Shown here piece by piece: positions 6,292-33,071 of a stretch of DNA of 33,071 nucleotides (position 1 is the stretch's first letter; each line of letters starts with the position of its first letter). The position numbers and the translations under genes were made by a program. The notes beneath the pieces were generated by a model that was not told the DNA's origin, made no database searches, and worked only from the letters and a program-made list of their open reading frames with translations. The stretch is from a bacterium. GTDB taxonomy: Bacteria > SAR324 > NAC60-12. The stretch covers positions 1-33,071 of the forward strand of contig CBDDTI010000477.1 of NCBI GenBank assembly GCA_965233585.1, in the 5' to 3' direction.

Positions 6292-7843
6292 TGTGGCGAA
6301 GTCCTATTTCCATGTGCCTCGGAACCAGCATGTATAAACATGTCATGCAAGCTATGTGCTTTGTGGCCCCCCAACCAAGGTGGTTTGCCATCTCTTGAAA
6401 AAAAGTATAAACGGGCGGACCTGGCAGGCGGTGACCGTTTCTGGGCTGGGACACGCACAGTATTACAATATGATATATGTTGTTCTTTATGGGTTTAGGG
6501 TCCTGACTCCTGACTGTGACTGGAATTGAAACTCTTATCTTAACACTCATACATCCATCTCTATATTTTAACACTCATACATCCATCTCTATATCATATC
6601 TCTAGCTCTATCTCAATAAAAAAATATATCGATGTGTCTCTTTGTGGTAGCAGCTTATCCAGGTAATCCATCCCATCCCGGGGCCCTGACTCGATGCAAA
6701 CCTAGCTGCACAGACAAACAATGCGGACACGCAAAGCATTCAAGGACTATGATTAATGACTGTGACAGATCACATTCAGCGATGTCACGGCACAACTATA
6801 TGCGCAAAAGGAATGGGCAGCTTTATTGCTCTTCTATGGAGTCTCAGACCGTTCTGCTTGACTCACGCCGATACACTATGGTGAGACAGGATGCACTATG
6901 GTGAAACTGAATGTCTCAAGCAAAGATGCGTGCATCAGCAAGTCTCAGACAGTTCTGGTTGAGCCAAAAATTATCATAGATTCAATTGGGGGGAGGTAAC
7001 AATAGATGTACCATGGCTCATGGCAAGGCCATGGTTCACCATCACCTCCATTGAAAATTATACGACCTGAGGAGGAGCCTGGACACGTATACCTTATATC
7101 GTGTGTGCATGTGTCGATGATGGCGTGGCGAAGTCCCATTTCCATGTGAACCGGAAGAAAAAGGAAATGATGTGACTCGAAACCAGCATGTATAAAGATG
7201 TCATGAGGGCTGTGTGCTTTGGGCCCCCCAACCAAGGTGGTTTGCCATCTCCCCAAAAAGAAGTATAAACCGGCGGACCTGGCAGGCCGCGAACGTTTCT
7301 GGGCTGGGACAAGCACAGTATTACAATATGATATAATGGGATGGCCCTTGTGCCCCTTTCCATGTGCTTTTTGGGTTTAGGGTCCTGACTCCTGACTGTG
7401 ACTTCAATTGAAACTCTTATCTTAACACTCATACATCCATCTCTATATATTAACACTCATACATCCAACTCTATATCATATCTCTAGCTCTATCCCAATA
7501 TAAAATATATCGATTTGTGTCTTTGTGGTAGCAGCTTATCCAGGTAATCCATCCCATCCCGGGGCCCTGACTCGATGCAAACCTAGCTGCGCAGACAAAC
7601 AATGCGGACCTGCAAAGCATTCAAGGACTATGACTAATAACTGTGACAGATCACATTCAGTGATATCCCGGCACAACTATATGCGAAAAAAGAAATGACA
7701 GGTTTATTGATCTTCGATGGAGTCTCAGACCGTTCTGTTTGACTCACGCCGATGCACTATGGTGAGACAGGATGCACTATGGTGAAACTGAATGTCTCAA
7801 GCAAAGATGCGTGCATCAAAAAATCTCAGACAGTTCTGGTTGA
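6292..7843 (+). repeat. Tandem duplication of a ~670-720 bp complex segment
   Basis: Copy 1 ~6292-6962 and copy 2 ~7125-7843, both running from gtggcgaagtcc.atttccatgtg to tctcagacagttctggttga, separated by ~160 bp of unique sequence. Confidence 0.9.
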
Positions 7844-8830: not shown

Positions 8831-8837
8831 TTTTCCT

Positions 8838-9210
8838 GCGAAAGGATTACTCCAGCACACGAAAAATTGCAATTTTACCTCAGTTTTTGCCGATCGACCC
8901 TCATTTCGTGCGAAAAGGTTGCTCCGGCACACGAAAAATCGCAATTTTACCTCAGTTTTTGCCGATCGACCCTCATTTCGTGCGAAACGGTTGCTTCGGC
9001 ACACGAAAAATCGCAATTTTACCTCAGTTTTTGCCGATCGACCCTCATTTCGTGCGAAAGGGTTGCTCCAGGACAAGTAAAATCGCAACTTTACCTCAGT
9101 TTTTGCTGATCGACCCTCATTTCGTGCGAAAGGGTTGCTCCAGGACAAGTAAAATCGCAATTTTACCTCAGTTTTTGCTGATCGACCCTCATTTCGTGCG
9201 AAAGGGTTGC
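8838..9210 (+). repeat. 72-bp tandem repeat, about 5 units
   Basis: aaaatcgcaattttacctcagtttttgc.gatcgaccctcatttcgtgcgaaagggttgc at ~8863, 8935, 9007, 9079 and 9151. Confidence 0.92.
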
Positions 9211-10018: not shown

Positions 10019-11425
10019 CACAAATAACATATCATGGAAATCAAATCACTGATCGAATAAGTCAGACAAATATTTTCATTGTAGAAGACGCTTGGAACAG
10101 TTTTGAAAAAAATTGGGAGAAAGCAACCGTTTTTCAAAACACCATGCTCTCAAAAGATTCTCATCTTAGAAGACGCTTGGAACAGTTTTGATAGAAAAGC
10201 TTGGACAAAATTATCGTTTTTCAAAAACACCACGCTCTTACAGGAATCTCATCTTAGGAGAGGCTTGGAACAATTTTGATGGAAAAATGGAAGAAAATCA
10301 ATGTTTCTCAAAACACCATGCTCTCAAAAAAGTCTTGTCCTAGATGTCTCTTGGAACAATCTTGACGGAAAAATTGGGAGACAAATACCGGTTTTTTTCC
10401 AAACACCAAAAAATCATCTTAGATTTTTTTTAATTTTTCTGATAAGAAAACCTTGGGGAAAACAATTCTTTTTTTTCGATTCCTTCTGTTCGTCAAAATT
10501 CTCAACTTAAAAGTGTCTTGGAACAATTCTGATCGAAAAATTTGGAGGACATCACAATTTTTCAAAAACACCATGCTCTGAAACGATTCTCATCTTAGAA
10601 ACGCCTTGGCACAGTTCTGATAGAAAAATTGGGGGTAAGTCACCGATTTTTCAATACACCATGCCCCTCAAAGATTCCCATCTTAGAAGTTTCTTACAAC
10701 AATTTTTGCGACAAAAATTTGGGAGAAGATCACCTTTCTTCAAAACACCATTGCTCTGAAAGGATTCTCATCATAGAAATTTCTTGGAACAATTGTGACA
10801 GAAAAATTGGGAGACCATCACCGTTTTTCCAAACATCATGCTCTTAAGATTCTCATTTTAAAAGTTTTCGAAGCAATTTTGATCGAAAAATTGGGAGAAA
10901 ACCACCGTTTTTCAATTCAGAATGCTCTGATAGAAGAAAATGGGGTCAGCCATCGTTTTTTTGCTGTTAAAAGATGATGAGTTTCATCTTTTATCAAGAC
11001 ACCATGTTCTTAAAAGATTCTCATCTTTGAAATTCTTGGGTCAATTTTGATAGAAAAATTGGAAGAAAAATACCGTTTGTCAAAACCATTCTTTTAAACA
11101 CCATGCTCTTAAAAGATTCTTATCTTACAGCTTCCTTGGACCAATTTTGATAGAAAAATTGCGAAAACATCACCGTTTTTCAAAACACAATGTTCTTGAA
11201 AGATTTTTTATCTAACAGGTATTGCTCTGAAAAAATTCTCAATTTTGAAATGTTTTGAAACAATTTTGATAAAAACAAATTGGGAGAAAATCACCGTTTT
11301 TCAAAACGCCATGCTCTTAAAAGATTCTTATCCTTGAAATGTCTTGGAACAATTTTGATAGAAAAATTGGGAGAAAATCATCGTTTTTCAAAACATAATG
11401 TGCTTAAGAGATTCTCCCAATTTTT
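10019..11425 (+). repeat. ~86-bp satellite array (copy 2) with the same leader as copy 1
   Basis: cttggaac anchors at 10091, 10176, 10264, 10350 and onward; leader caaataacatatcatggaaatcaaatcactga matches ~3111-3142. Confidence 0.88.
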
Positions 11426-11454
11426 CTTTTAAAAATTAGAAATTTCTGAGGTGG

Positions 11455-11890
11455 ACAAGCATGGCAAGAAATTCCATGCGTTCCAAGACGCTTTTGAGAT
11501 CAGAAATTTTTGAAGGCATGGTATTTTGAAAAATGTTCCCAGGGCATGCTGTTTTGAAAAACACTGATTTTCACCAAGTTTTTCCATCAAAATTTTCCCA
11601 AGGCACTTCTAAGATGTAAGAGCATGGTGTTTTGAGCAACAATAATTTTCTTCCAGGTTTGCTATCCAAGAGACTTCTAAGATGAGATTTTGTGAAGAGA
11701 AGGGTGTTTTGAAAAAAATGATTTGTCGATTTGTCCCAAATTTTTCTTTCTATCATATCTGTCCAAGAGACTTCAAAGATGGGAATCTTTGAAGAGCATG
11801 GTGATTTGAAAAAGGGTGGTTTCTCCCAGTTTTTTTCAATACTGTTCCAAGCGTCTTCTACAATGAAAATATTTCTCTGACTTATTCGAT
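11455..11890 (-). repeat. Inverted copy of the ~86-bp satellite including part of its leader
   Basis: The reverse complement of 11845-11892 is gatcgaataagtcagagaaatattttcattgtagaagacgcttggaac, matching 10051-10098. Confidence 0.85.
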
Positions 11891-14023
11891 CTTTGTGTGG
11901 GGTTCTTGTTTTTGATTCTGTATCCCGGGCTCCTCCGCCTTCCGCCTCCTCCCGCCGATACTCACATACCAGAACTTCACACACACTCACACACACAAAT
12001 TTAACATACAATAACTTCACACACACATACCATAACTTCGCACACACAAATTTAACATACTATAAATTCACACACACTCAGACAAACACACAACTTTGTC
12101 ACATACCATAACTTCACACACAAATTTAACATACAATAACTTCACACACACACACAGTCCCGTAGGTACGTTTGCACGGGTCCCGGGGAGGTGTCTTCGT
12201 TGGTCACCGACCCCCCCCGGGACCCCGGTGACCCCCTGCAAAATAAGAAGTTTTACATCTATTCAGATTGTACACACACACGCCCCACCGCGGCGGGGCA
12301 GATGAAATGAAAATGAAAGTGAGGTGACAATGAAAATGAAATGAACATTTCCTAACCAGGACGCGAAGAAGGGAACGCAAAAGAAGAGGGACAGAGAGAA
12401 CACCAACACGACACACCTGGCCCGGAACGGGCAAACCCTGAAAAGGCAAGGGAAAAGAAAAGCTGAGGCCGACGGGCAACGGAACAAGACTAGCGGAGGG
12501 GGGGAAGGACGGAAGCGCCTGAACCAACCTAACACGGCGAAAACCCACGCCTACCTCGGCACGCGCAGGACCCAACCTACCTAAAGAGAGGGGAACGCAG
12601 AAACACATGAGAAAGGGGGCCCATGGGGGACAGGTTAATAAAATGATGCAACCACAACGCATGCAAAAATCTTGATAAGGCTGAAAGGCCCTCGGTATTC
12701 ATTTCACAACCCTCTGGACAGCTTATGGGTTCAACCCCTGAATTACGTGCACAATTGAACCTCACCAACGACCATAAAAAGAAAGAATCACCACACCTGC
12801 AGGAATGTCCTGAAGCCTTCATGTCATGGTGAAATTGTCGAGCCCCGTACTCTCTTGGGCATCATTGAAAAAAAGGATGTTGTCGCGGCTTTCAGTAGGC
12901 TACTCTGGAAATGCAGTCACTCTGAAAAGGTGAGTCCCTGGTACAGCGGGCAGCTGTTGCAACACAACGACATCAACGAGTGAGACCAGGAAAGAAGGCC
13001 AGCAGTTCACATTACTCAGACGAATTACTAATTCAAAAGTAAATTCAGACATCGTTTTACTGTCCAGTGTTAGCCTAGAAAGGCTTTCCCTGAAAGGTTC
13101 CTGCCAACTTGACGTATGCAGCAGGAAAGACACACTTGCTCAAAAATATCTTATCGAATTACTGATGTGGAATACATCGGACGTGCAAAGAAAACTCAGT
13201 TAAACCTAACAGGAGAAATGAATATATATAAGGAACTTCCACAAAAGTTGGTGTTTTCAACATGTTTGGTGTTTTCAGATATTCCTGTAGCACGTGGGCA
13301 TGCGGCAACATGATCTTTTTAGCTGCAACAGGGACAAGTGTTCCAGATGTGTGATGGCGTTGAAAGTGTTCGAATGGGCTCATACTTTTACAGAAACTAT
13401 AGCATGTTGTGTGCTTTGAATTTTGAACATGTGTCAGTTGTAAGTTGTACTTAGACTTCAGAAAATTAAGCAACTCAAAGGAAATAGCGCAGAGATATGG
13501 CTTATCTGCGCAGAATATGAAGCACATTCAAACACATTCCTGTCGTTTCATTCCCGTCCGCAAAGAACCATCACTCCTCTATTAACAAGACAGTTGAACG
13601 TTACGCACTTTAAATATCTTAAACACTCTTGTGCTGTAATATGATTGTCCTTTTCCCTCCACAAATACTAGATCACTAACCCCTGCTGCTGCTGCTGCTG
13701 CCGCCGCTGCTGCTAAACTCAATTTGCTTTCATCCTGACATTCTTCCTTTCCAGAGGGGTTTTAACCAACCACTTCTTGGCCTCAACACCTTGCCCTGAA
13801 AAAAAATCCACCTTGCCAAGGTGCTAAACCTGATGTCTTTCTTGTTTTGAAGCTTGAATCTTCTCTCCCTTTCCCACATAATTTGATATTATATACTACA
13901 TCTGTCTACTCCAACTGGGTGACGCTGAAAAGGCACCGTCCAGAATAAGGACTTGAAGTGAGACATCATGACATCGTAGGAACAATATCTCTCCACTTTG
14001 TGGAATATCATTTAGTCCTCAAA

Positions 14024-14294
14024 GTGGAGAGCTCTTCCTAGAAGAGCTCTCCACCAGTACTTCAAAACATTCAAAGCCAGTACCAAATATCCCTAGCTTC
14101 GGTGATCCCAACCAACTTTGCACAGTAGCAACCAATGCTGCTGGAAAGGAAGGTGGAGAGCTCTTCCAAGAAGAGCTCTCCGCTTTGCAACCAACAGCAG
14201 GCATTCCAAAGTGGAGAGGGATTGGTCAACCGTGGCCAAAATCAAACTTGACACGGGGTAGGGGTGGAGAGCTCTTCCAGGAAGAGCTCGCCGT
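14024..14294. repeat. Three spaced ~31-bp palindromes GTGGAGAGCTCTTC-NNN-GAAGAGCTCTCC
   Basis: Copies at 14024-14054, 14153-14183 and 14264-14294, with different intervening sequences. Confidence 0.85.
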
Positions 14295-14304
14295 CCCCCC
14301 GAAA

Positions 14305-14458
14305 GGAATTTCTCGCCGCCCTCCAAACAACCGGAATACCTCGCCGCCCCCCTGTTGAAAATTCCTCGCCGCCCCCCGAACAACCGGAATACCTCGCCGC
14401 CCCCCTGTTGGAAATTCCTCGCCGCCCCCGAAACAACCGGAATTCCTCGCCGCCCCCT
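14305..14458 (+). repeat. Six-unit GC-rich tandem repeat (AATTCCTCGCCGCCCCCC) with two alternating linkers
   Basis: ctcgccgccc occurs six times, alternating with ..aacaaccgg.. and ..tgttg.. linkers. Confidence 0.85.
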
Positions 14459-15148
14459 TCTCAGAAAAAAATGCGGAAAACCCCGATGGCTTACCCTTGG
14501 AATCCTTTAGTGGCCCTTCGTATGGGAGAAGCTAACTGATGGCAGCCAAGTGCCCCTAATAGTCACTTTTGGACAGTTCGCAATTTCGCAAGAGTAAATA
14601 CTGACTATGCTTAGTTTATTCTTAAATAAGTGGCTATATTCCCTGACTACTGGAAGTCTAGCATTCTCTTGGCCTAGTAAGGTTTGGAACAATTGTCATT
14701 AAAATTCAAAATGCGCAAAAGATTTCGCACTGCTGCTGCAACACCCGGCCAAAACTGAAAACACAAAAGCTTTGAACATGGAGCCCCCTAAGAACTTCTT
14801 GCCATCGATCAGAATCATATAATCAACACATTCATGGTGGCACTACTTCCATGTTGGTTTTCAACAAAAATCATATCCTAAGCCAACCAATACCGAAAAC
14901 ACCAAAAGTGTTGAAAACACTAACTTTTGTGAAAGTTCCTTATATATATATATATAAATAAATATATATATATGGGACTATGGTGGCCACCAGCTGCGAT
15001 TTAAATGCGCCCAGGTGCACCACCACAGTCCCCGCAGGTACGTTTGCACGGGTCCCGGGGAGGTGTCTTCGTTGGTCACCGATCCCCCCTGGACCCCCGG
15101 TGACCACCTGCAAAAATAGAAGTTTTACATCTATTCAGATGGTAACAG

Positions 15149-16945
15149 TTTTGCATGGCAGGCATGGCCCAATCTCACATCCACTTTCGTTTTGCATGGC
15201 AGGCGTGGCACAATCTCACAGCTGCCTTCGTTTTGCGTGGCAGGCGTGGCGCTCATGGGCCTGGGTGGCGCGCTTGGGCCGGTTTTGTCACGGATGACGC
15301 CGCGGCACTTTGCGTGGCAGGTGTGGCAAAAATCTCAAACTTAACTGTTTTGCATGGCAGGCGTGGCGCAAGCTCACATCCACCTTCGTTTTACATGGCA
15401 GACGTGGCACAATCTCACATCCGCCTTCGTTTTCGCGGCAGGCGGCGTGCCGCTCATGGGACTGGGTGGCGCGCTTGGGCCGGTTTGGTCGCGGATGACG
15501 CCGCGGCACTTTGCGTGGAAGGCGTGGCGCACATCCACCTTCGTTCTGCATGGCAGGCGTGGCACAATCTCACATCCGCCTTTGTTTTGCGTGGCAGGCG
15601 TGCCACTCATGGGACTGGGTGGCGCGCTTGGGCCGGTTTGGTCGCGGATGACGCCGGTACTTTGCGTGGCAGGCGTGGCGCACTCTCACATCCACCGTCA
15701 TTTGCATGGCAGGCGTGGCGCAATCTCACATCCGCCGTCGTTTTGCATGGCAGGCCTGGCGCAATTTCACATCCGCCTTCGTTTTGCGTGGCCGGCGTGC
15801 CGCTCATGGGGCTGGGCGGCGCGCTTGGGCCGGTTTGGTCGCGGATGACGCCGCGGCACTTTGCGTGGCAGGCATGGCACAATCTCCCATCCACCGTCGT
15901 TGTGCAGGCGTGGCGCAATCTCACATCTGCCTTCGTTTTGCGTGGCAGGCGTGGCGCTGATGGGACTGGGTGGCGCGCTTGACTCTTTGTGGCACACTCT
16001 CACATCCACCTTCGTTTTGCATGGCCGGCGTGCACAATCTCACATCCGCCTTCGTTGTGCGTGGCAGGCGTGGCACTCATGGGACTGGGTGGCGCGCTTG
16101 GGCCGGTTTGGTCGCGGATGGCACCGCGGCACTTTGCGTGGCAGGCGTGGCGCACATCCACCTTCGTTTTGCATGGCAGGCGTGGCGCAATCTCACATCT
16201 GCCTTCGTTTTGCGTGGCAGGCGTGCCACTCATGGGACTGGGTGGCGCGCTTGGGCCGGTTTGGTCGCGGATGACGCCGAGGCATTTTGCGTGGCATGCG
16301 TGGCAGGCGTGGCGCAATCTCACATCCACCTTCGTTTCACCTGGCAGGTGTGGCGCAATCTCACGACCTTCGTTTTGCGTGGCAGGCGTGGCACTCATGG
16401 GACTTGGGCCGGTTTGGTCGTGGATGACGCCGCGGCACTTTGCGTGGCAGGCGTGGCACAATCTCACATCCACCTTCGTTTTGCGTGGCAGGCGTGGCGC
16501 AATCTCACATTCACCTTCGTTTTGCGTGGCACGCGTGGCACTCATGGGACTGGGTGGCGCGCTTGGGCCGGTTTGGTCGCGGATGACGCCGCGGCACTTT
16601 GCGTGGCAGGCGTGGCGCAATCTCACATCCACCTTCGTTTCACGTGGCAGGCGTGGCGCAATCTCACGTCCGTCTTCGTTTTGCCTGGCAGCCGGTTTGG
16701 TCGTGAGTGACGCCGCGGCACTTTGCGTGGCAGGCGTGGCACCATCTCACATCCACCTTCGTTTTGCGTGGCAAACATGGCGCAATCTTTCATCCACCTT
16801 CGTTTTACGTGCAGGGGTGGCACTCATGGGACTGGGCGGCGCACTTAGACTGGTTTGGTCGCGAATGACGCCGCGGCACTTTGCGTGGCAGGCGTGACGC
16901 AATCTCACATCCACCTTCGTTTTGCGTGGCAGGTGTGGCACTTAT
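15149..16945 (+). repeat. GC-rich composite minisatellite (TTGCGTGGCAGGCGTGGCGCAATCTCACATCCACCTTCG with a GGGACTGGGTGGCGCGCTTGGGCCGG subunit)
   Basis: Many copies of a ~40-45 bp subunit interleaved with a ~85 bp subunit; explains the AWQAW/RGRRG/VAGVA ORFs in all frames. Confidence 0.92.
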
Positions 16946-16957
16946 GGGGCGTGCTTG

Positions 16958-17040
16958 GCTCGCCTCCCGCCTCGTCTCCCGCCTCGCCCCCGCCTCGCCT
17001 CCCGCCTCGCCTCCCGCCTCGCCTCCCGCCTCGCGCCTCC
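16958..17040 (+). repeat. CCCGCCTCGCCT dodecamer repeat (G-rich on the minus strand)
   Basis: Direct reading of 16958-17040. Confidence 0.8.
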
Positions 17041-17239
17041 TTCCGCCCACCTTCACACTCTTTGACAACACACATTTTCTCAACACACACTTTGTCAACA
17101 CACACACATAAATGAATACATGCATCCATACTATCTTAAACACACAATTTTGTCACTCAGACTTCGTGTGCAGACAATGATCGTGTCGTTCTGTTTTGGT
17201 TGCTTTGGCTCAAGTAAAAAATTGCAGAAGATAGTGCGA

Positions 17240-18070
17240 CCTTGCTGGCATATTTCCTTGGACATGTTCTGGCTTTCGGCATGTTAACCTACTGGTGTCG
17301 TCGCCATGTTTTATGTTCTGGTACGTTTATTCCTTCGGCATGTATGGGGGTGTTTCAATATGTTCTGGTACGTTTATTCCTTCGGCATGTATGGGGGTGT
17401 TTCAATTTCTGCATGTTTGTTTCTATTCACATGTGCGGCCTTGCTGGCATGTTTAATTGGGTATGCTCTCTCTTCCGGAATGGTGTTGTCTTCGGGCATA
17501 TTAACCTACTGGTGTCGTCGCCATATTTAATGTTTCAGCAAATTTATTCCAACTACATATTTGGGCATCTTTGAATTTCTGGCATGTTTATTTCTATTCA
17601 CATTTGCGGTTTTGCTGGCATGTTTAAGTGGGCATGTTCTCTTTTCCGGAATGATACTGTCTTCTGGCATGTTAACCTACTGGTGTTGTCGCCGTCTTGG
17701 ATGTTCCGATTAATTTCTTCCTTCGGCATGTTTGGGCATGTTTGAATTTCTGGCATGATTATTTTCTTTTCATATTTGCGACCTTGCTGGCATGTTGAAT
17801 TGGGCATGTTCTCTCTTCCGGCATGGTACTGTCTTCCGGCATGTCAGTTTATTCCAACTGCATGTTTGGGCATCTTTGAATTTCTGACATGTTTATTTCT
17901 ATTCAGATTTGTGGCCTTACTGGCATGTTTAATTGGGCATGTTGTGTCTTCCGGCATGTTAACCTACTGGTGTCATCGCCATGTTTGATATTTCGGCGCA
18001 TTTATTCCTTCGGCATGTTTGGGCATGTTTGATTTTCTGGCATGTTTATCAGCTGTCATTTCTATGCACA
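17240..18070 (+). repeat. Diverged ~170-bp tandem repeat rich in GGCATGTT
   Basis: ccttgctggcatgtttaattggg variants at ~17439, 17610, 17782 and 17915; ttaacctactggtgt at ~17284, 17501, 17672 and 17959. Confidence 0.8.
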
Positions 18071-19377
18071 TTTGCGGCCAGGTGCTTCTCATTGTCTTTG
18101 TGGTCGCTACGACAGGCAGGGCCGAAGTGCTTTGGAGCAGCGCTGTGCAGCGCAGACGTGGCAACGCGTTGAAGCTTTTGGCGTGCAAACTATGATCATG
18201 CTGGTCAATTGTCCTGGCAGTGGCCCAACCAGGAATTGCTGACAACAACTGTAGCATGCATGGTAAATCAAAAACGGAGTTATCAGATTATCTTATTGCT
18301 GCTCTGGTTGCTTTGGCCCAACGTGGAAAGAAAAGACCGGGGCAGCGTAATTCTCCTTTGGTGACCTTCGCAATTCTCCTTTGGTGAGCTTCGCCCAAAG
18401 TGGAAAGAGGCCACCGAAGCAGACATTGCAGAGGACAGTTTCGCCACCACTATTGTTTCGTGAAGCTATGGCTGTGCAAAAACTTGCTAATGGTCCGGGG
18501 GTGCACGACATCTTGTGTAACGTTGTGTGGCACAGAACAAGCTTCTTGCGTGGAGAGTATCATGATATTCGTCAGTTTTGGTCGTGGTGGCCCGAATATT
18601 CTTTCGGCCTGCTTCTTTCCTGTCACAAATGCGGCCAGGTGCTGGTCTTGGTTGTGGGCCCTACCGCAGGGAGGGTCCAACTGCGCTTAAGAAACGCCGT
18701 GCAGCGCAGACATTGAGCAGACATTGAGATATCAGCATGCAGACTCTCATCACGTGGTTTTTTGGTCGCTTTTGGCTCAACTAGACGTGGCGGACAACAG
18801 CTCTAGCACGCATACCTACGCAATGACTGTTATAGGCAGTCAAGTTCATACCATTACAACCACAACTACAACTAGTCAGTCAAGTTAGATTGGCCAATTG
18901 CAAAGAAGTCATCGGATCATCTATTCCTGCTCTGGTCGTTTAGGAGGCCACAGGCGCGCGTTCTGTGGCGAATGTTGCCAAGCATGGTGCCGGTTGGCGT
19001 GCTCATTTAAAGGGTGCCGAAGTAGTAAACGGCCCTACCAGGCCATCCAAGGCAGCTGCAGATGTCAATGCCAGTGGACTTCAGGGTGCGCTGCAGATTT
19101 CTGCCAAAAGAGCTACAGTCTGTTGCTCAGCGGCTGCAGCAGGAGGCTGCTGATGTAGTCGCAAGAAGTAGCCGCGAAGCTCGGTGCTTTGGGATTACAG
19201 CGACAGCAGAAGAGGGCCAGACTGCGTGCGAAAAATGTCGCGGATGATTTCTGACCCTGAGCTGGCCCCGAAGCGTGTGCAGCTTTTGGTCTTTGCTTTT
19301 CAGGATGTGGAAGCATTAGCACCGCGCAGCCAAGGGTGCGTGGATGGTGGATTTGGGCTTTCACACTCGACTAGATT

Positions 19378-20030
19378 ATGGCTCTCGGCCCGCATGGACA
19401 AGCGGCTTGGAGCGCGGCACGGCATGTTGGCTTGAAGAATTTAGGGAACAGCTGCTGGCCCAATGCGGTGTTGCAATGTATTCGGTGGACTCGCTTGCTG
19501 TACAATGCTTCACGACTCCGTTGATGAAATGGGAAGAATCGATTCTGGGATCGTTGGTGCAAGATGTTTTACAGAAACGTGCAAGCGACGACAGGGATTA
19601 TGTTGCACCATTTGCTGTTCTCAATCAACTGTATGCAACCTACCAAGGAAAATTTCGACCTGGTGAGAGCGCAGATGCAGCAGAAGCTTGTCGCTTGTTG
19701 ATAGACCGGTGTGTCAACGGCAGTGATAATGTTCATTTACTGCCAACGATGTGAAGGCGCACCCATTTCAAAGGCATCAGCGGTGGCCACAAAAGCGGCG
19801 TCATTTCCTATGTCCACTGCTGCAGCGGAATCTCCGTCTGAACAGCGTCGTAAGAAGACGTCGTGACAGCATTGCACGGGAGAAGATTTTTTTCTGTAAT
19901 TATGATACACATCTTTCTGTACATATCATGAAATGGTTTGACGCAATGTGCAAAGAACCGTTTGATGCTGAGCAAAATTGGTTGTGTGTTTCTGAATATA
20001 AGGTGTGAAGAATCATTCTGGCCCGGAAAG
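19378..20030 (+). pseudogene. Frameshifted ubiquitin-specific protease (USP, peptidase C19) catalytic-domain fragment
   Basis: 19426-19479 translates as VGLKNLGNSCWPNAVLQC (USP Cys box). After a frameshift, the 19344 ORF frame gives ..FRPGESADAAEACRLLIDRC (QxDAxE-like box) at a typical distance. The 19751 ORF frame gives HLSVHI..EPFDAEQNWLC (finger-like). No His box seen. Confidence 0.75.
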
Positions 20031-21064
20031 CAACATTTCTTGATCCGCAATGAGTTAGGAGTAGCTTCCAGTAAGATTTCATTGGCTGCCCCACTCATGT
20101 TGTAGCAAAATCGCACGCATGAAGCCTCTTTGTGTTTGCTACTAGCTCAGGTGCCCATCCAGTGAGCTTCTTGGACGGAGGAAAGGCGCGTGTCGCATGG
20201 CCCGACAATGAGTCCACGAGTCTATGTCCTCAGGAGCAAGAGCTTTGACCCAATGTGGGAAAAAGCGTATGCAGATTCATCGCGAACCGACACCTATTTG
20301 AATGTCTATGATGCCTGTGTGTTTCTAAAATTTGTGGTTGGTTGACATATTTTGTCAGGTAATTTTTTGTATGTCATCATCGTCGGATTCCTGGCTGTAG
20401 GAAAGGCGTGGTTGTCACGTAGCACATCTCGTAGCACAGAAGATAATGGAATACCTCATTCAGCCGATTCCAGATCCGCAGTGCTCCCGGATGGAGAGCA
20501 GGTGACATTGCAGCGCTGGCCAAAAAAATGGTCTGCACTGTCGCGCACACAAATCATCTTTCATACGCCGCATCTTTCACACGCAACTTACATACATACA
20601 TACATGCATACATGCATACAAACAAAACGAAAAACCCCACAGGATGGCTCTCCTAGTAACGCCGGAAGATTAGCAGTTGATCCTGTCTATATGCCAGGTA
20701 TGATTACCAGCCACAGGGTATGCAGAAAGAGTTCGCAAAATTCGCGGCTGCGCCCGAAAGAGTGCAGAACATTACCTTGGTCAGCGGAAGTATGGTGAGC
20801 AGACCATCGCTTTGATAGCAGAGCCTGGTGGAACTCGAAGCAAGCGGAGCAACTTACTCACAAACAACCTACTCACAAACAACTTACTCTACATACAGAC
20901 ATACATACATAGATACATACATACATTACTATCTTTTCACACACTTTCTTGCTTTGTCACACACCCTCTTTCACATTCTACTTTAACACACACAACTGTT
21001 TTAACTTCTTTGAAGCTCATTATTGGAAGAAGTTGACTTGTGGGGTTATCCGTTCCTTTAATTT

Positions 21065-23760
21065 ATCAAAACGGTTCCAAGAGATTTCTAAGATAAGAAT
21101 CCTTTAAGGACATGGTTGTTTTGAAAAACGTTGATTTTCAACCACTGACTTCTGAAAAGAGAATTTTTCAAGTGCATGGTGGTTCTAGCAACAGTAATTT
21201 CCTATCAATTTTTCTATGAAAATTGTTCCAAGAAACTTTTAAGATGAGAATATTTTGAGAGCACGGTGTTTGAAAAAACGGTGATTTGCTCGCTTTTTTC
21301 CATCAAAAAAATATTCCAAGATATTTCTAAAATATTTTTTTTTAAAGTACGGGATTTTGAAAAACGATGATTTTCACCCAATTTTTCTATCAAAATTGTT
21401 CCAAAAAAATTCGACGATGAATATTTAATAAGAACATGGCCTTTTGAAAACGAATAATTTTTCCCTATTTTTTGCAAAATTGTTCCACGAAACTTCAAAA
21501 ATGAGAAAGAATTTTTTGAGAGCATGGTGTTTTGAAAAACGGTGGTTTCCGCCAATTTTTTTGAAAATTGTTCCGAAATATCTAAAGTGAGCATTTTTGA
21601 GGAGCACGGTGTTTTGAAAAACGGTGATTTTCGCCTAATTTTTCTTCCATTTTTTTGCGAGACATTTCTAAGAAATTGCTAAGATGATTTTTTTTTCAAA
21701 ATATGATAATTGAAAAACGATGCTTTTCTCGCAATTTTTAAACCAAAAATGTTCCAAAAGATTTCTAAGATAAGAATCTTTTAAGGGTATGATATTTTGA
21801 AAAATACGGATTTTCTATTTTTTTCCATAAAAATTATGTCAAAAAAATTCTAAGATATTTTTTTTTTAAAATCCATGATAATTTGAAAAATTAGGAGAGG
21901 AGAATTATCAATTTTCAAAATATCATAATCTTAAAAAATTCTTATTCGTCAAATTTATAAATAATTTTCATTTTTCAAAATACCATTTTCTCAATAAATT
22001 TAAATCTTTGAAATTTCTTGGAATAATTTTGATGGAAAAATTGGGAGAAAATCGTCATTTTTCAAAATTTCATGTTCTTAAAAAATTCTTATCTTAGAAT
22101 TGTCTCGGAAAAAAATTGTTGGAAAAATAGGTAGAAAATGATCGTTTTTCAAAATATAATGTTCTGAAAAAAATTGATCTTAGAAATTTGATATTTTTTT
22201 TGCAAAAAAATGGGGGTGAGGCCCATCTATTTTCATAAATTCGTATCTGAGAAATTTCTTAGAATTCTTTATATAAAAATTAGATAAAAATTATTATTTT
22301 TCAAAATGCCACGGCCTTAAAAAATTATTATAGAAATTTTTAAAAATAATTTTGAAATTTTTCAAAATATTATGCATTTAAAATATTCTTATCTCGGATT
22401 TTTTTTTGCAATAATCTGAATAGAAAAATTAAAATAAAACTATTATTTTTCAAAAAATCATGCTTTTTAAAAAAATACCTCAAAAATTTCTCGGCAGAAT
22501 TTTAATCAATAAATTAAAAATTATTATTTTTCAAAATACCATGCTATTAATAGATTTTCATCGTGGAAATTTCTTGGAATAATTTTAATATAAAATATTG
22601 GGAAACAATTATTATTTTTCAAATTATTATGTCCCTCAAAAATTCTTAGCTTAGAAATTTCTTGTAACAATTTTTCAAAAAAAATTGGGAGGAATTTACC
22701 ATTTTTTTACTTATCATATTTTTAAAATAAATTCATCTTAGAAATTTCTTCGAACAATTTAATTAAAAAAAATTAGGTTAAAATCATTATTTTTCAAAAT
22801 ACCATGCTCTTAAAAAATTCTTATTTTAGAAATATTTTGGAAGGATTTTGAAAGAAAAATTGGACGAAAAATACGAATTTCAAAATATTATATTCTTAAA
22901 TGATTTTTATCTTAGAAATATTTTGGAATAAATTTAATTTAAAAAAATGGGAAAAATTACCATTGATCGAAATATAATGCTCTTAAAAAATCCTTATCCT
23001 AGAAATTTCTTGCATAATTTTGATAAAAAAAATTAATCAAAATTATTCTTTTTCAAAACATCATGATATCATCTTAAAATACATTTGGAATAATTTTAAT
23101 AAAAAATAAAAATCAATTTAAAAAATTGGATTTTTTTTTTCAAAATATTATGCTTAAAAAAAATCTGGCTCTCCAATTATTGTCATCTTTGAAATTTCTT
23201 GGAAAAAAACTATTAGAAAAAAATAATCAAAATTATTAAATTTTTAAAATATTTAATTCAAATAAATTTATTCCCGAAATTTCTTGGAAAAAAAAAACCT
23301 TAATATTTCTTATTTTAGAAATATCTTCGAATTCGAATCTTTTTAATAATAAAATTTGGAGAAAATTATTTTTTTAAATTTACATGCTCTTAAAAAAAAT
23401 ATAGATATTTTTTGGAACAATTTTGACAAAAAAATATCGGAACCATTTTTAATAAAAAAAAATGCGGACGGAACAAAATTGAATTCAATATTATTTTGGA
23501 AATATTTTAATAATTTTAATAAAAATATCGGAGAAAAACATAATTAAAAATTATATTTTTTAATAATTGTTATTTTCGAATTTTTTCTTTAACTTTTAAT
23601 TTTTTAAAAAAAAATATATGATTCTTTTTCAAAGCTCCATTGTCTTGAAAATTTTGATTCTAAAATTATCTTGGAAAAAAATTAATACAATAATAAGGAA
23701 GAAATCACCGTTTCTCAAATTATTATGTTTTTTAAATATTTTTATCTTAGGAATACAAAG
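21065..23760. repeat. ~86-bp satellite, minus orientation to ~21880 then plus orientation, progressively AT-eroded
   Basis: aaattgttccaagaa..agcatggtgttttgaaaaacggtg units first, then tttcttggaataattttgatggaaaaattgggagaaaatc units from ~22015 with increasing loss of G and C. Confidence 0.8.
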
Positions 23761-32029: not shown

Positions 32030-33071
32030 GGGAGGGGTGATGGGGTGGGCGGGTGTGTTAACGTTCCTGACACTTCGCCTTGAAGATGATGTTACGCTAC
32101 GGCACGTTGTCTTGGAAGTTGCGTCATGTCATGATGGGGTCAGGGTTGGGCGGGTGTGTTAACGTTCCTGACACTTCGCCTTGAAAATGATGTTACGCTA
32201 CGGCACATTGTCTTGGAAGTTGCGTCATGTCATGATGGGGTCAGGGTTGGGCGGGTGTGTTGACGTTCGTTTGTTGACGTTCCTGACACTTGCATCTTAA
32301 AGATGATGCTACGTTACGGCACGTTGTCTTGGAAGTTGCGTCATGTCATGATGGGGTCAGGGTTGGGCGGGTGTGTTGACGTTCGTTTGTTAACGTTCCT
32401 GACACTTGCGTCTTGAAGATGATGTTACGCTACGGCACATCGTCTTGGAAGTTGCGTCATGTCATGATGGGGTCAGGGTTGGGCGGGTGTGTTGACGTTC
32501 CTGACACTTGCGTCTTGAAGATGATGCTACACTAAGGCACATTGTCTTGGAAGTTGCGTCATGTCATGATGGGTTCAGGGTTGGGCGAGTGTGTTGACGT
32601 TCGTTTGTTGACGTTCCTGACACTTGCATCTTGAAGATGATGCTACGTTACGGCACGTTGTCTTGGAAGTTGCGTCATGTCATGATGGGGTCAGGGTTGG
32701 GCGGGTGTGTTGACGTTCGTTTGTTGACGTTCCTGACACTTGCATCTTGAAGATGATGCTACGTTACGGCACGTTGTCTTGGAAGTTGCGTCATGTCATG
32801 ATGGGGTCAGGGTTGGGCGGGTGTGTTGATGTTCGTGACACTTGCGTCTTGAAGATGATGCTACGTTACGGCACGTTGTCTTGGAAGTTGCGTCATGTCA
32901 TGATGGGTTCAGGGTTGGGCGGGTGTGAGGACGTTCCTGACACTTGCGTCTTGAAGATGATGCTACGTTACAGCACGTTGTCTTGGAAGTTGCGTCATGT
33001 CATGGTGGGGTCAGGGTTGAGCGGGTGTGTTGCCGTTCCTGACACTTGCGTCTTGAAGATGATGCTACGTT
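32030..33071. repeat. Young tandem repeat, 101-102 bp and 116 bp unit variants, about 10 units, runs off the window
   Basis: ggcgggtgtg anchors (allowing single mismatches) at ~32048, 32149, 32250, 32366, 32482, 32584, 32700, 32816, 32918 and 33020; long units carry a 14-bp internal duplication (gacgttcgtttgtt). Confidence 0.95.

Follow-up and report, generated by a model that had tools for sequence, protein, structure and literature searches.

The window analyzed here, a stretch of 33,071 nt, contains a real Cys box of the USP type (peptidase C19). This Cys box is probably part of a dead, truncated copy from a multi-copy gene family of Symbiodiniaceae dinoflagellates, in other words an ordinary decayed pseudogene, and its nearest named relative comes from Cladocopium goreaui. 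In the window we observed homology to this family, lesions in the copy, a junction with another repeat, spliced-leader relics in the leaders, and no transposon genes. A dead copy of this kind is ordinary because Symbiodiniaceae genomes abound in pseudogenes; according to PMC8045281, the putative ones number 183,516 and 48,427 in two Symbiodinium genomes. The features referred to below are:

Window 10082-11416, 11420-11877 and 21054-23034: 88-bp satellite, in one orientation until ~11416 and reversed from ~11420, continuing beyond a 9.2-kb interruption.
Window 17169-17216, plus strand: leader copy 0, where the family 5′ leader begins; a DinoSL-like relic (CTTTGGCTCAAG) occupies 17203-17214.
Window 17218-18076, plus strand: 171-bp 'GGCATGTTT' tandem repeats, upstream of the leaders (TRF 17373-17844, period 171).
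Window 18067-18495, plus strand: leader copy 1, a leader that runs into the opening nine codons of the family ORF (MAVQKLANG, 18469-18495) before a break.
Window 18624-18943, plus strand: leader copy 2, with the best DinoSL relic at 18767-18781, ending inside a second relic-like stretch.
Window 18944-19748, plus strand: USP-like gene remnant, comprising the last N-terminal repeat, a linker, the Cys box and the GESADAAEAC box, and ending in ...HLLPT.
Window 19733-20081, plus strand: module X, a copy from a different repeat family, unrelated and without Pfam domains; it holds an 'NWLC' motif and meets the USP remnant at 19745-19748.

The Cys box lies at 19423-19479, with the catalytic-Cys codon at 19453-19455, in a 49-aa frame (19375-19524) that reads IMALGPHGQAAWSAARHVGLKNLGNSCWPNAVLQCIRWTR... 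and contains ...HVGLKNLGNSCWPNAVLQC.... The near-canonical USP Cys box described in the first-pass annotation was borne out by profile comparison, as this frame, the only one of six local frames scanned to do so, matched Pfam UCH (PF00443) with an E-value of 1e-4 over profile positions 1-24. Its score of 22.5 bits is slightly below the cut-off of 23.9, as expected given that the match spans just 24 residues. The ADAAE motif noted previously belongs to the family as well, in the form of a GESADAAEAC box (19662-19691) that is conserved among family members and shares its reading frame with the stop-to-stop ORF 19320-19754. The 91-aa frame at 19479-19751 is 73-86% identical to seven proteins (seven at E ≤ 0.01 among 108 candidates), all of which carry PF00443 and one of which is named 'ubiquitinyl hydrolase 1, Cladocopium goreaui', after a coral-symbiont dinoflagellate.

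We aligned the remnant with a custom-written frameshift-aware procedure, using the 536-aa relative P0001 as the reference. Window positions 18944-19748 aligned to P0001 residues 192-470 at 85% identity (226 of 266). The reading frame moves forward by one near each of 19106, 19182-19185, 19252, 19334 and 19422, and back by one near 19507; three of these six changes are located at short homopolymer runs, as read by eye. The alignment also contains one 11-aa deletion and no stops on its path, and its seven segments are consistent with the ORF list. Taken together with the close relatives, this alignment upholds the initial identification of a decayed USP (peptidase C19) remnant, and it confirms that the motifs are separated by true frameshifts with no room for introns. 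The ATG at 19378, which had been proposed to open the frame, does not mark the true start. Relatives translate the sequence leading into the Cys box in a different frame, as AWMV.LGFHTRLDYGSRPAWTSGLERGTA, which leaves the MALGPHGQAAWSAAR stretch, and the ATG with it, out of frame.

A predicted protein from elsewhere, P0008 (136 aa), is 97% identical (132/136) to window frame 19344-19751. The match takes in the out-of-frame segment that two of the shifts enclose, as well as the odd ...HLLPTM end, so that both shifts and the 3′ junction are present in a second sequence. With six frame changes, an 11-aa deletion and truncation at both ends, the remnant has no protein-coding open frame of a USP/UBP peptidase C19; it encodes nothing and is a non-functional truncated copy. 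The three frameshifts sited at homopolymers could be assembly errors, and the gene would not be rescued even so.

Coding homology to the USP family ends at 19748 (...HLLPT), where it overlaps with homology to module X over positions 19745-19748. Eleven proteins at E ≤ 0.1, among 13 candidates, were 56-79% identical to frame 19730-20005, none of them with a Pfam domain, and tblastn traced module X across 19733-20081 in two frames, unlike constrained coding sequence. The ...HLLPTM terminus of P0008 is a USP/module X junction identical to that of the window. This 3′ junction shows recombination with another repeat, and the protein sequences suggest that both parents may have shared a CCAACG microhomology at 19745-19748. 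The 'E..NWLC' that had been read as a USP motif sits in the module X frame 19730-20005 and does not belong to the USP. Since module X relatives read DAVAKVVVCVSEY (VAKVVVC) at the place where the window has DAEQNWLCVSEY, 'NWLC' is a chance product.

The initial observation that no His box is visible also held, as tblastn with the C-terminal parts of six relatives against 19701-21100 found nothing better than E 0.09 beyond 19748. The stretch at 20358-20480 (NFLYVIIVGFLAVG, RRGCHVAHLVAQ, ADSRSAV) appeared His-box-like by eye and resembled the C-termini of P0002 and P0020; it was rejected on a tblastn E-value of 3.3, obtained in a sensitive search against 1.4 kb only. A His box seen by eye in P0020 was also rejected, as it falls in a C-terminal piece without a UCH match, modeled there with a pLDDT below 50.

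We then considered the sequence upstream of the remnant. Predicted proteins P0004, P0005, P0035, P0045 and P0046 start with translated leader sequence that recurs in the window. Leader copy 0 aligns to 18738-18783 with a score of 36, reached by none of 300 shuffles, and a tblastn match with P0005 residues 11-25 (E 0.24) is weak alone. In copy 1, tblastn placed P0004 residues 29-103 at 18175-18372 and residues 114-167 at 18372-18494, and two direct repeats, D19 and D20, link 18067-18157 to 18624-18711, in copy 2. Mean column identity between copies 1 and 2 is 71%, in an alignment that is good over about the first 230 columns only. Copy 2, part of which P0004 and P0005 translate as VAL(V/A)QL(D/E)VADNS.STH, runs into the coding part near codon 190, with three of the four N-terminal repeats absent. 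The 171-bp repeats that precede the leaders correspond to repeat families D6, D8, D10 and D13. Residues 8-53 of P0043 match these repeats at 17936-18076 (E 0.003), and P0004 opens with a translation of a 171-bp-type repeat ahead of its leader and USP part, as judged by eye with no tool match.

The leaders contain relics of the dinoflagellate spliced leader, for which the DinoSL reference sequence was taken from PMC5585692. At 18767-18781, 12 of 15 bases match the DinoSL 15-mer, and the 11-mer TTTTGGCTCAA occurs exactly at 18770-18780, 164 nt upstream of 18944, and with one mismatch at 17203-17213. By the 9-mer rule of PMC5585692, the exact occurrence counts as a relict DinoSL, the mark of a dinoflagellate retrogene being such a relict of at least 9 nt with zero mismatch at most 500 bp upstream of the coding part. 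Across the window, the 11-mer with one mismatch allowed gave 4 matches versus 2.0 expected, a count that is not above chance (12 of 100 shuffles reached 4); similarly, the 15-mer with three mismatches gave 4 versus 1.87 expected (10 of 100 shuffles reached 4), and the full 21-nt DinoSL with up to 3 mismatches had no matches in the window. As the counts are not above chance, the relics draw their weight from where they sit and from the homologous leaders of relatives. On the minus strand, the 11-mer has a second exact occurrence, at 6959-6969. There it precedes CCAGAAC, in a context similar to that of leader copy 1, and it may be another leader fragment on the opposite strand.

Because the 5′ leaders carry spliced-leader relics, we propose that the family spread at least partly through reverse transcription of its own mRNA and reinsertion, which would be the dinoflagellate retrogene route. 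This DinoSL-marked route is known in dinoflagellates, as described in PMC5585692 and PMC12014239. The relics would nonetheless record the history of the family, not retroposition of this copy itself, and the shared upstream 171-bp repeats suggest copying of the locus at the DNA level. The three same-orientation leaders among 171-bp repeats would then represent an eroded tandem or segmental array, in which the first and second copies may have lost almost everything. The third copy would have lost ~190 codons between leader and body, afterwards acquired six frameshifts and the 11-codon deletion, and been cut off past ...HLLPT by the junction with another repeat family. The 3′ end of the copy has been replaced by module X at 19745-19748, so that there is no 3′ poly(A) to read.

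To place the remnant in its family, we examined the relatives. In a search of 1.84 billion representatives with no length limit, 27 proteins were found at E ≤ 1e-3, the longest of 465 aa, and a further search with P0006 yielded 18 proteins at E ≤ 1e-5. The longest relative found overall has 630 aa, in a search for longer members that reached 2000 aa. The PF00443 cut-off was passed by 13 of 14 relatives in one scan and by 4 of 18 proteins in a second, with passing close relatives scoring 33-53 bits. The match always stops at ~106 of the 254 profile positions, and the C-terminal half of PF00443, which holds the His box and the catalytic Asp/Asn, has no counterpart in the relatives examined. When a profile of 24 family members was used as the query, it found solved USP structures (USP21, USP15, USP2, USP4 and others; best E 3e-12); 92 sequences were found at E ≤ 0.01, and all 60 among the matches listed are USPs. 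A fold search with the model of P0020 placed USP14, USP4, USP7 and Ubp6 on top, yet gave no matches at E ≤ 0.001, a weak result from a model with a mean pLDDT of 62.

Intact-looking family members share an architecture in which two to four N-terminal repeats (GWRARxK...GPxR...A.xDA) are followed by a linker and then by the N-terminal, Cys-box half of the USP domain. It was seen in P0001-P0007, P0012, P0015, P0018, P0029 and P0049-P0053, none of which has a detectable His box. In the model of P0047 (mean pLDDT 72), each N-terminal repeat forms three strands and a long helix, and in this predicted form the repeats look like a nucleic-acid-binding module. Their beta3-alpha topology resembles that of AP2/ERF-type DNA-binding domains, in which a three-stranded sheet packs on a helix. 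AP2 identity gained no support from Pfam, with no AP2 match even at E 10, or from a fold search, which gave no matches at all at E ≤ 0.001 and placed the AP2 tandem of Plasmodium PfSIP2 only at rank 14 (E 0.37). A search of the ESM Atlas with one repeat returned only unnamed clusters, with scores under 0.9. The family is multi-copy, with 90%-identity clusters of 56, 31, 23, 14 and fewer members; it includes frameshifted translations (P0045, P0048 and P0055), and so far it has been seen only in a Symbiodiniaceae-type lineage. Its members may be active deubiquitinases, pseudo-enzymes or artefacts of incomplete gene models.

The window as a whole is repeat-dense eukaryotic DNA, with 87 tandem-repeat rows, a local G+C content that ranges from 16% to 63%, and no families found in an Rfam scan. 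Past 21.9 kb, the 88-bp satellite region is far more AT-rich (G+C 16-27%). Tandem arrays at 8832-9210 (72 bp, 5.3 copies, 94% matches) and 32056-33071 (116/334-bp units, 87-93%) are well kept, and the translation of the former yields a spurious Pfam 'YqfI-like' match. A GC-rich tandem array with periods of 41 and 153 occupies 15147-16945; its translation makes up the N-termini of the database 'proteins' P0036-P0038, which run on into module X and are probably gene-prediction artefacts. A pair of 55-nt inverted repeats (13222-13276 and 14895-14949; 93% complementary, spacing 1618 nt), with TA-rich sequence outside and short palindromes within (14020-14292), looks like a small terminal-inverted-repeat element. 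It is flanked by 114-nt direct repeats at 12159-12272 and 15031-15144, which are 92% identical and 2872 nt apart.

The first-pass annotation placed the Cys box within a composite element at 11891-21062 and regarded it as captured cargo or as a transposon-encoded USP. The bounds of this ~9.2-kb block stand in so far as they roughly coincide with the interruption of the 88-bp satellite. They do not stand as the ends of an element, since the satellite phase is broken across the block, stopping at unit position ~88 on the left and restarting at ~37 on the right, and no terminal structure was found. Capture and transposon encoding both failed to gain support: there are no transposon domains, no hairpin and no clean insertion.

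It is nevertheless conceivable, if unlikely, that the fragment is cargo, taken from a host USP-like gene by a Helitron or another DNA transposon, and that the 11.9-21.06 kb block is a non-autonomous composite element. The block does interrupt the satellite and is a mosaic of unrelated modules, and its USP/module X junction recurs in P0008. Its modules are also recombined in other gene models, such as P0035 (leader and module X), P0043 (171-bp repeat and module X), P0036-P0038 (GC-rich repeat and module X) and, likewise, P0004. As P0035, P0043, P0036-P0038 and P0008 combine the same modules, the composite or parts of it are repeated in the genome. Taken together, these observations fit a unit copied in its entirety, and the composite may itself be such a repeated unit; a mobile element would account for this too. 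However, the satellite phase is not resumed, and therefore the exact ends of such an element cannot be named. The nested 55-nt inverted pair and 114-nt direct repeats further indicate that the block need not be one element. According to PMC4067079, Helitrons are marked by a 5′ TC, a 3′ CTRR, a palindrome of 16-20 nt ~11 bp from the 3′ end and insertion between A and T. At the proposed edges we found neither a 3′ palindrome nor defined TC...CTRR ends, and there was no inverted repeat of at least 7 nt within 20 nt at 20940-21075 or 11860-11960. Rep/HUH and helicase are absent throughout the window, although a non-autonomous element would lack these anyway.

The coding content of the window gives the same picture. 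Among 129 stop-to-stop ORFs of 75 aa or more, none encodes a Rep/HUH, helicase, transposase, integrase or reverse transcriptase. Nine of the 129 have any Pfam match at E ≤ 0.01, and the only families above cut-off, YqfI (one ORF) and SprT-like (two ORFs), reflect tandem repeats in translation, where no individual stretch reaches the cut-off. The same transposon domains were absent from all 32 related predicted proteins scanned, so that the neighboring domains expected of a transposon-encoded protease (Rep/HUH, PIF1-type helicase, transposase) were found neither in the ORFs of the window nor in the relatives.

A broader possibility, which we regard as improbable, is that the 171-bp repeats, leader, USP-like gene and module X together form a repeated, possibly mobile Symbiodiniaceae unit. 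Its lineage-specific protein, in which nucleic-acid-binding-like beta3-alpha repeats are fused to half of a USP domain, would then serve the unit's own spread or its escape from silencing. If true, this would be the first transposon-type element with a C19 protease. Literature searches listed nothing about a transposon that carries a USP, or about this family. We give a little less credence still to a decayed autonomous transposon that encoded the USP-like protein to serve itself, by analogy with the OTU proteases of Helentrons. The family is multi-copy, many copies are broken, it has been seen in one lineage only so far, and its modeled N-terminal repeats, with three strands and a helix, look as though they could bind nucleic acid. 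Against this, none of the 32 related proteins has a transposon domain, and the relatives are short, the longest being 630 aa despite a search to 2000 aa and 465 aa in the unlimited representative search. High copy number and many pseudogenes are, moreover, normal for dinoflagellate genes, as described in PMC8045281 and PMC5585692. The transposon reading, examined here in the window and in predicted proteins, is unsupported, not refuted, and the addition of a spliced leader would not separate a host gene from a transposon gene. Finally, a live gene that appears broken through assembly errors is scarcely credible. In its favor are the three frame changes at short homopolymers; against it stand the ~190 codons absent between leader and body, the 11-codon deletion, the end of homology at 19748 in a junction with another repeat, and the two shifts and junction shared with P0008.

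A dead copy of a lineage-restricted family thus remains our preferred reading. The remnant itself would be one of the tens to hundreds of thousands of pseudogene fragments of Symbiodiniaceae, going by the counts in PMC8045281. The repeat mosaic around it has been deposited as public 'proteins', including frameshifted USP copies, translations of tandem repeats and module X, which inflates gene counts. The parent family is lineage-restricted and uncharacterised, and joins unclassified beta3-alpha repeats to the Cys-box half of the USP domain only.

Among known systems, the OTU-carrying Helentrons and the Helitron captures described in PMC4067079 share with the window a fragment of a ubiquitin-pathway cysteine protease in a mosaic repeat block. 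They differ in that here the protease is of a different clan, and Rep/helicase, a 3′ hairpin and defined TC...CTRR ends are lacking. The remnant resembles the USP/UBP peptidases of family C19 (PF00443; USP21, USP15, USP2, USP4, USP14) in its Cys box with the catalytic Cys codon and in the thumb region that follows, up to the family GESADA box. We take this box to be the equivalent of the QQDA box of USPs. In contrast to these enzymes, the profile match of every relative is confined to positions 1 to ~106 of 254, a His box was detected neither in the window nor in the family, and the N-terminal repeats are not known from USPs. The third comparison is with dinoflagellate retrogenes, which Slamovits and Keeling reportedly recognized in 2008 as marked by a relict DinoSL. 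The likeness to the DinoSL retrogenes and pseudogenes described in PMC5585692 (Song et al. 2017) lies in 5′ leaders that each hold more than one relict spliced leader, and in a multi-copy family with many decayed copies. Unlike those retrogenes, the copy described here is truncated at both ends. The upstream repeats that it has in common with a paralogue do not look transcribed, and suggest that this locus was duplicated at the DNA level.
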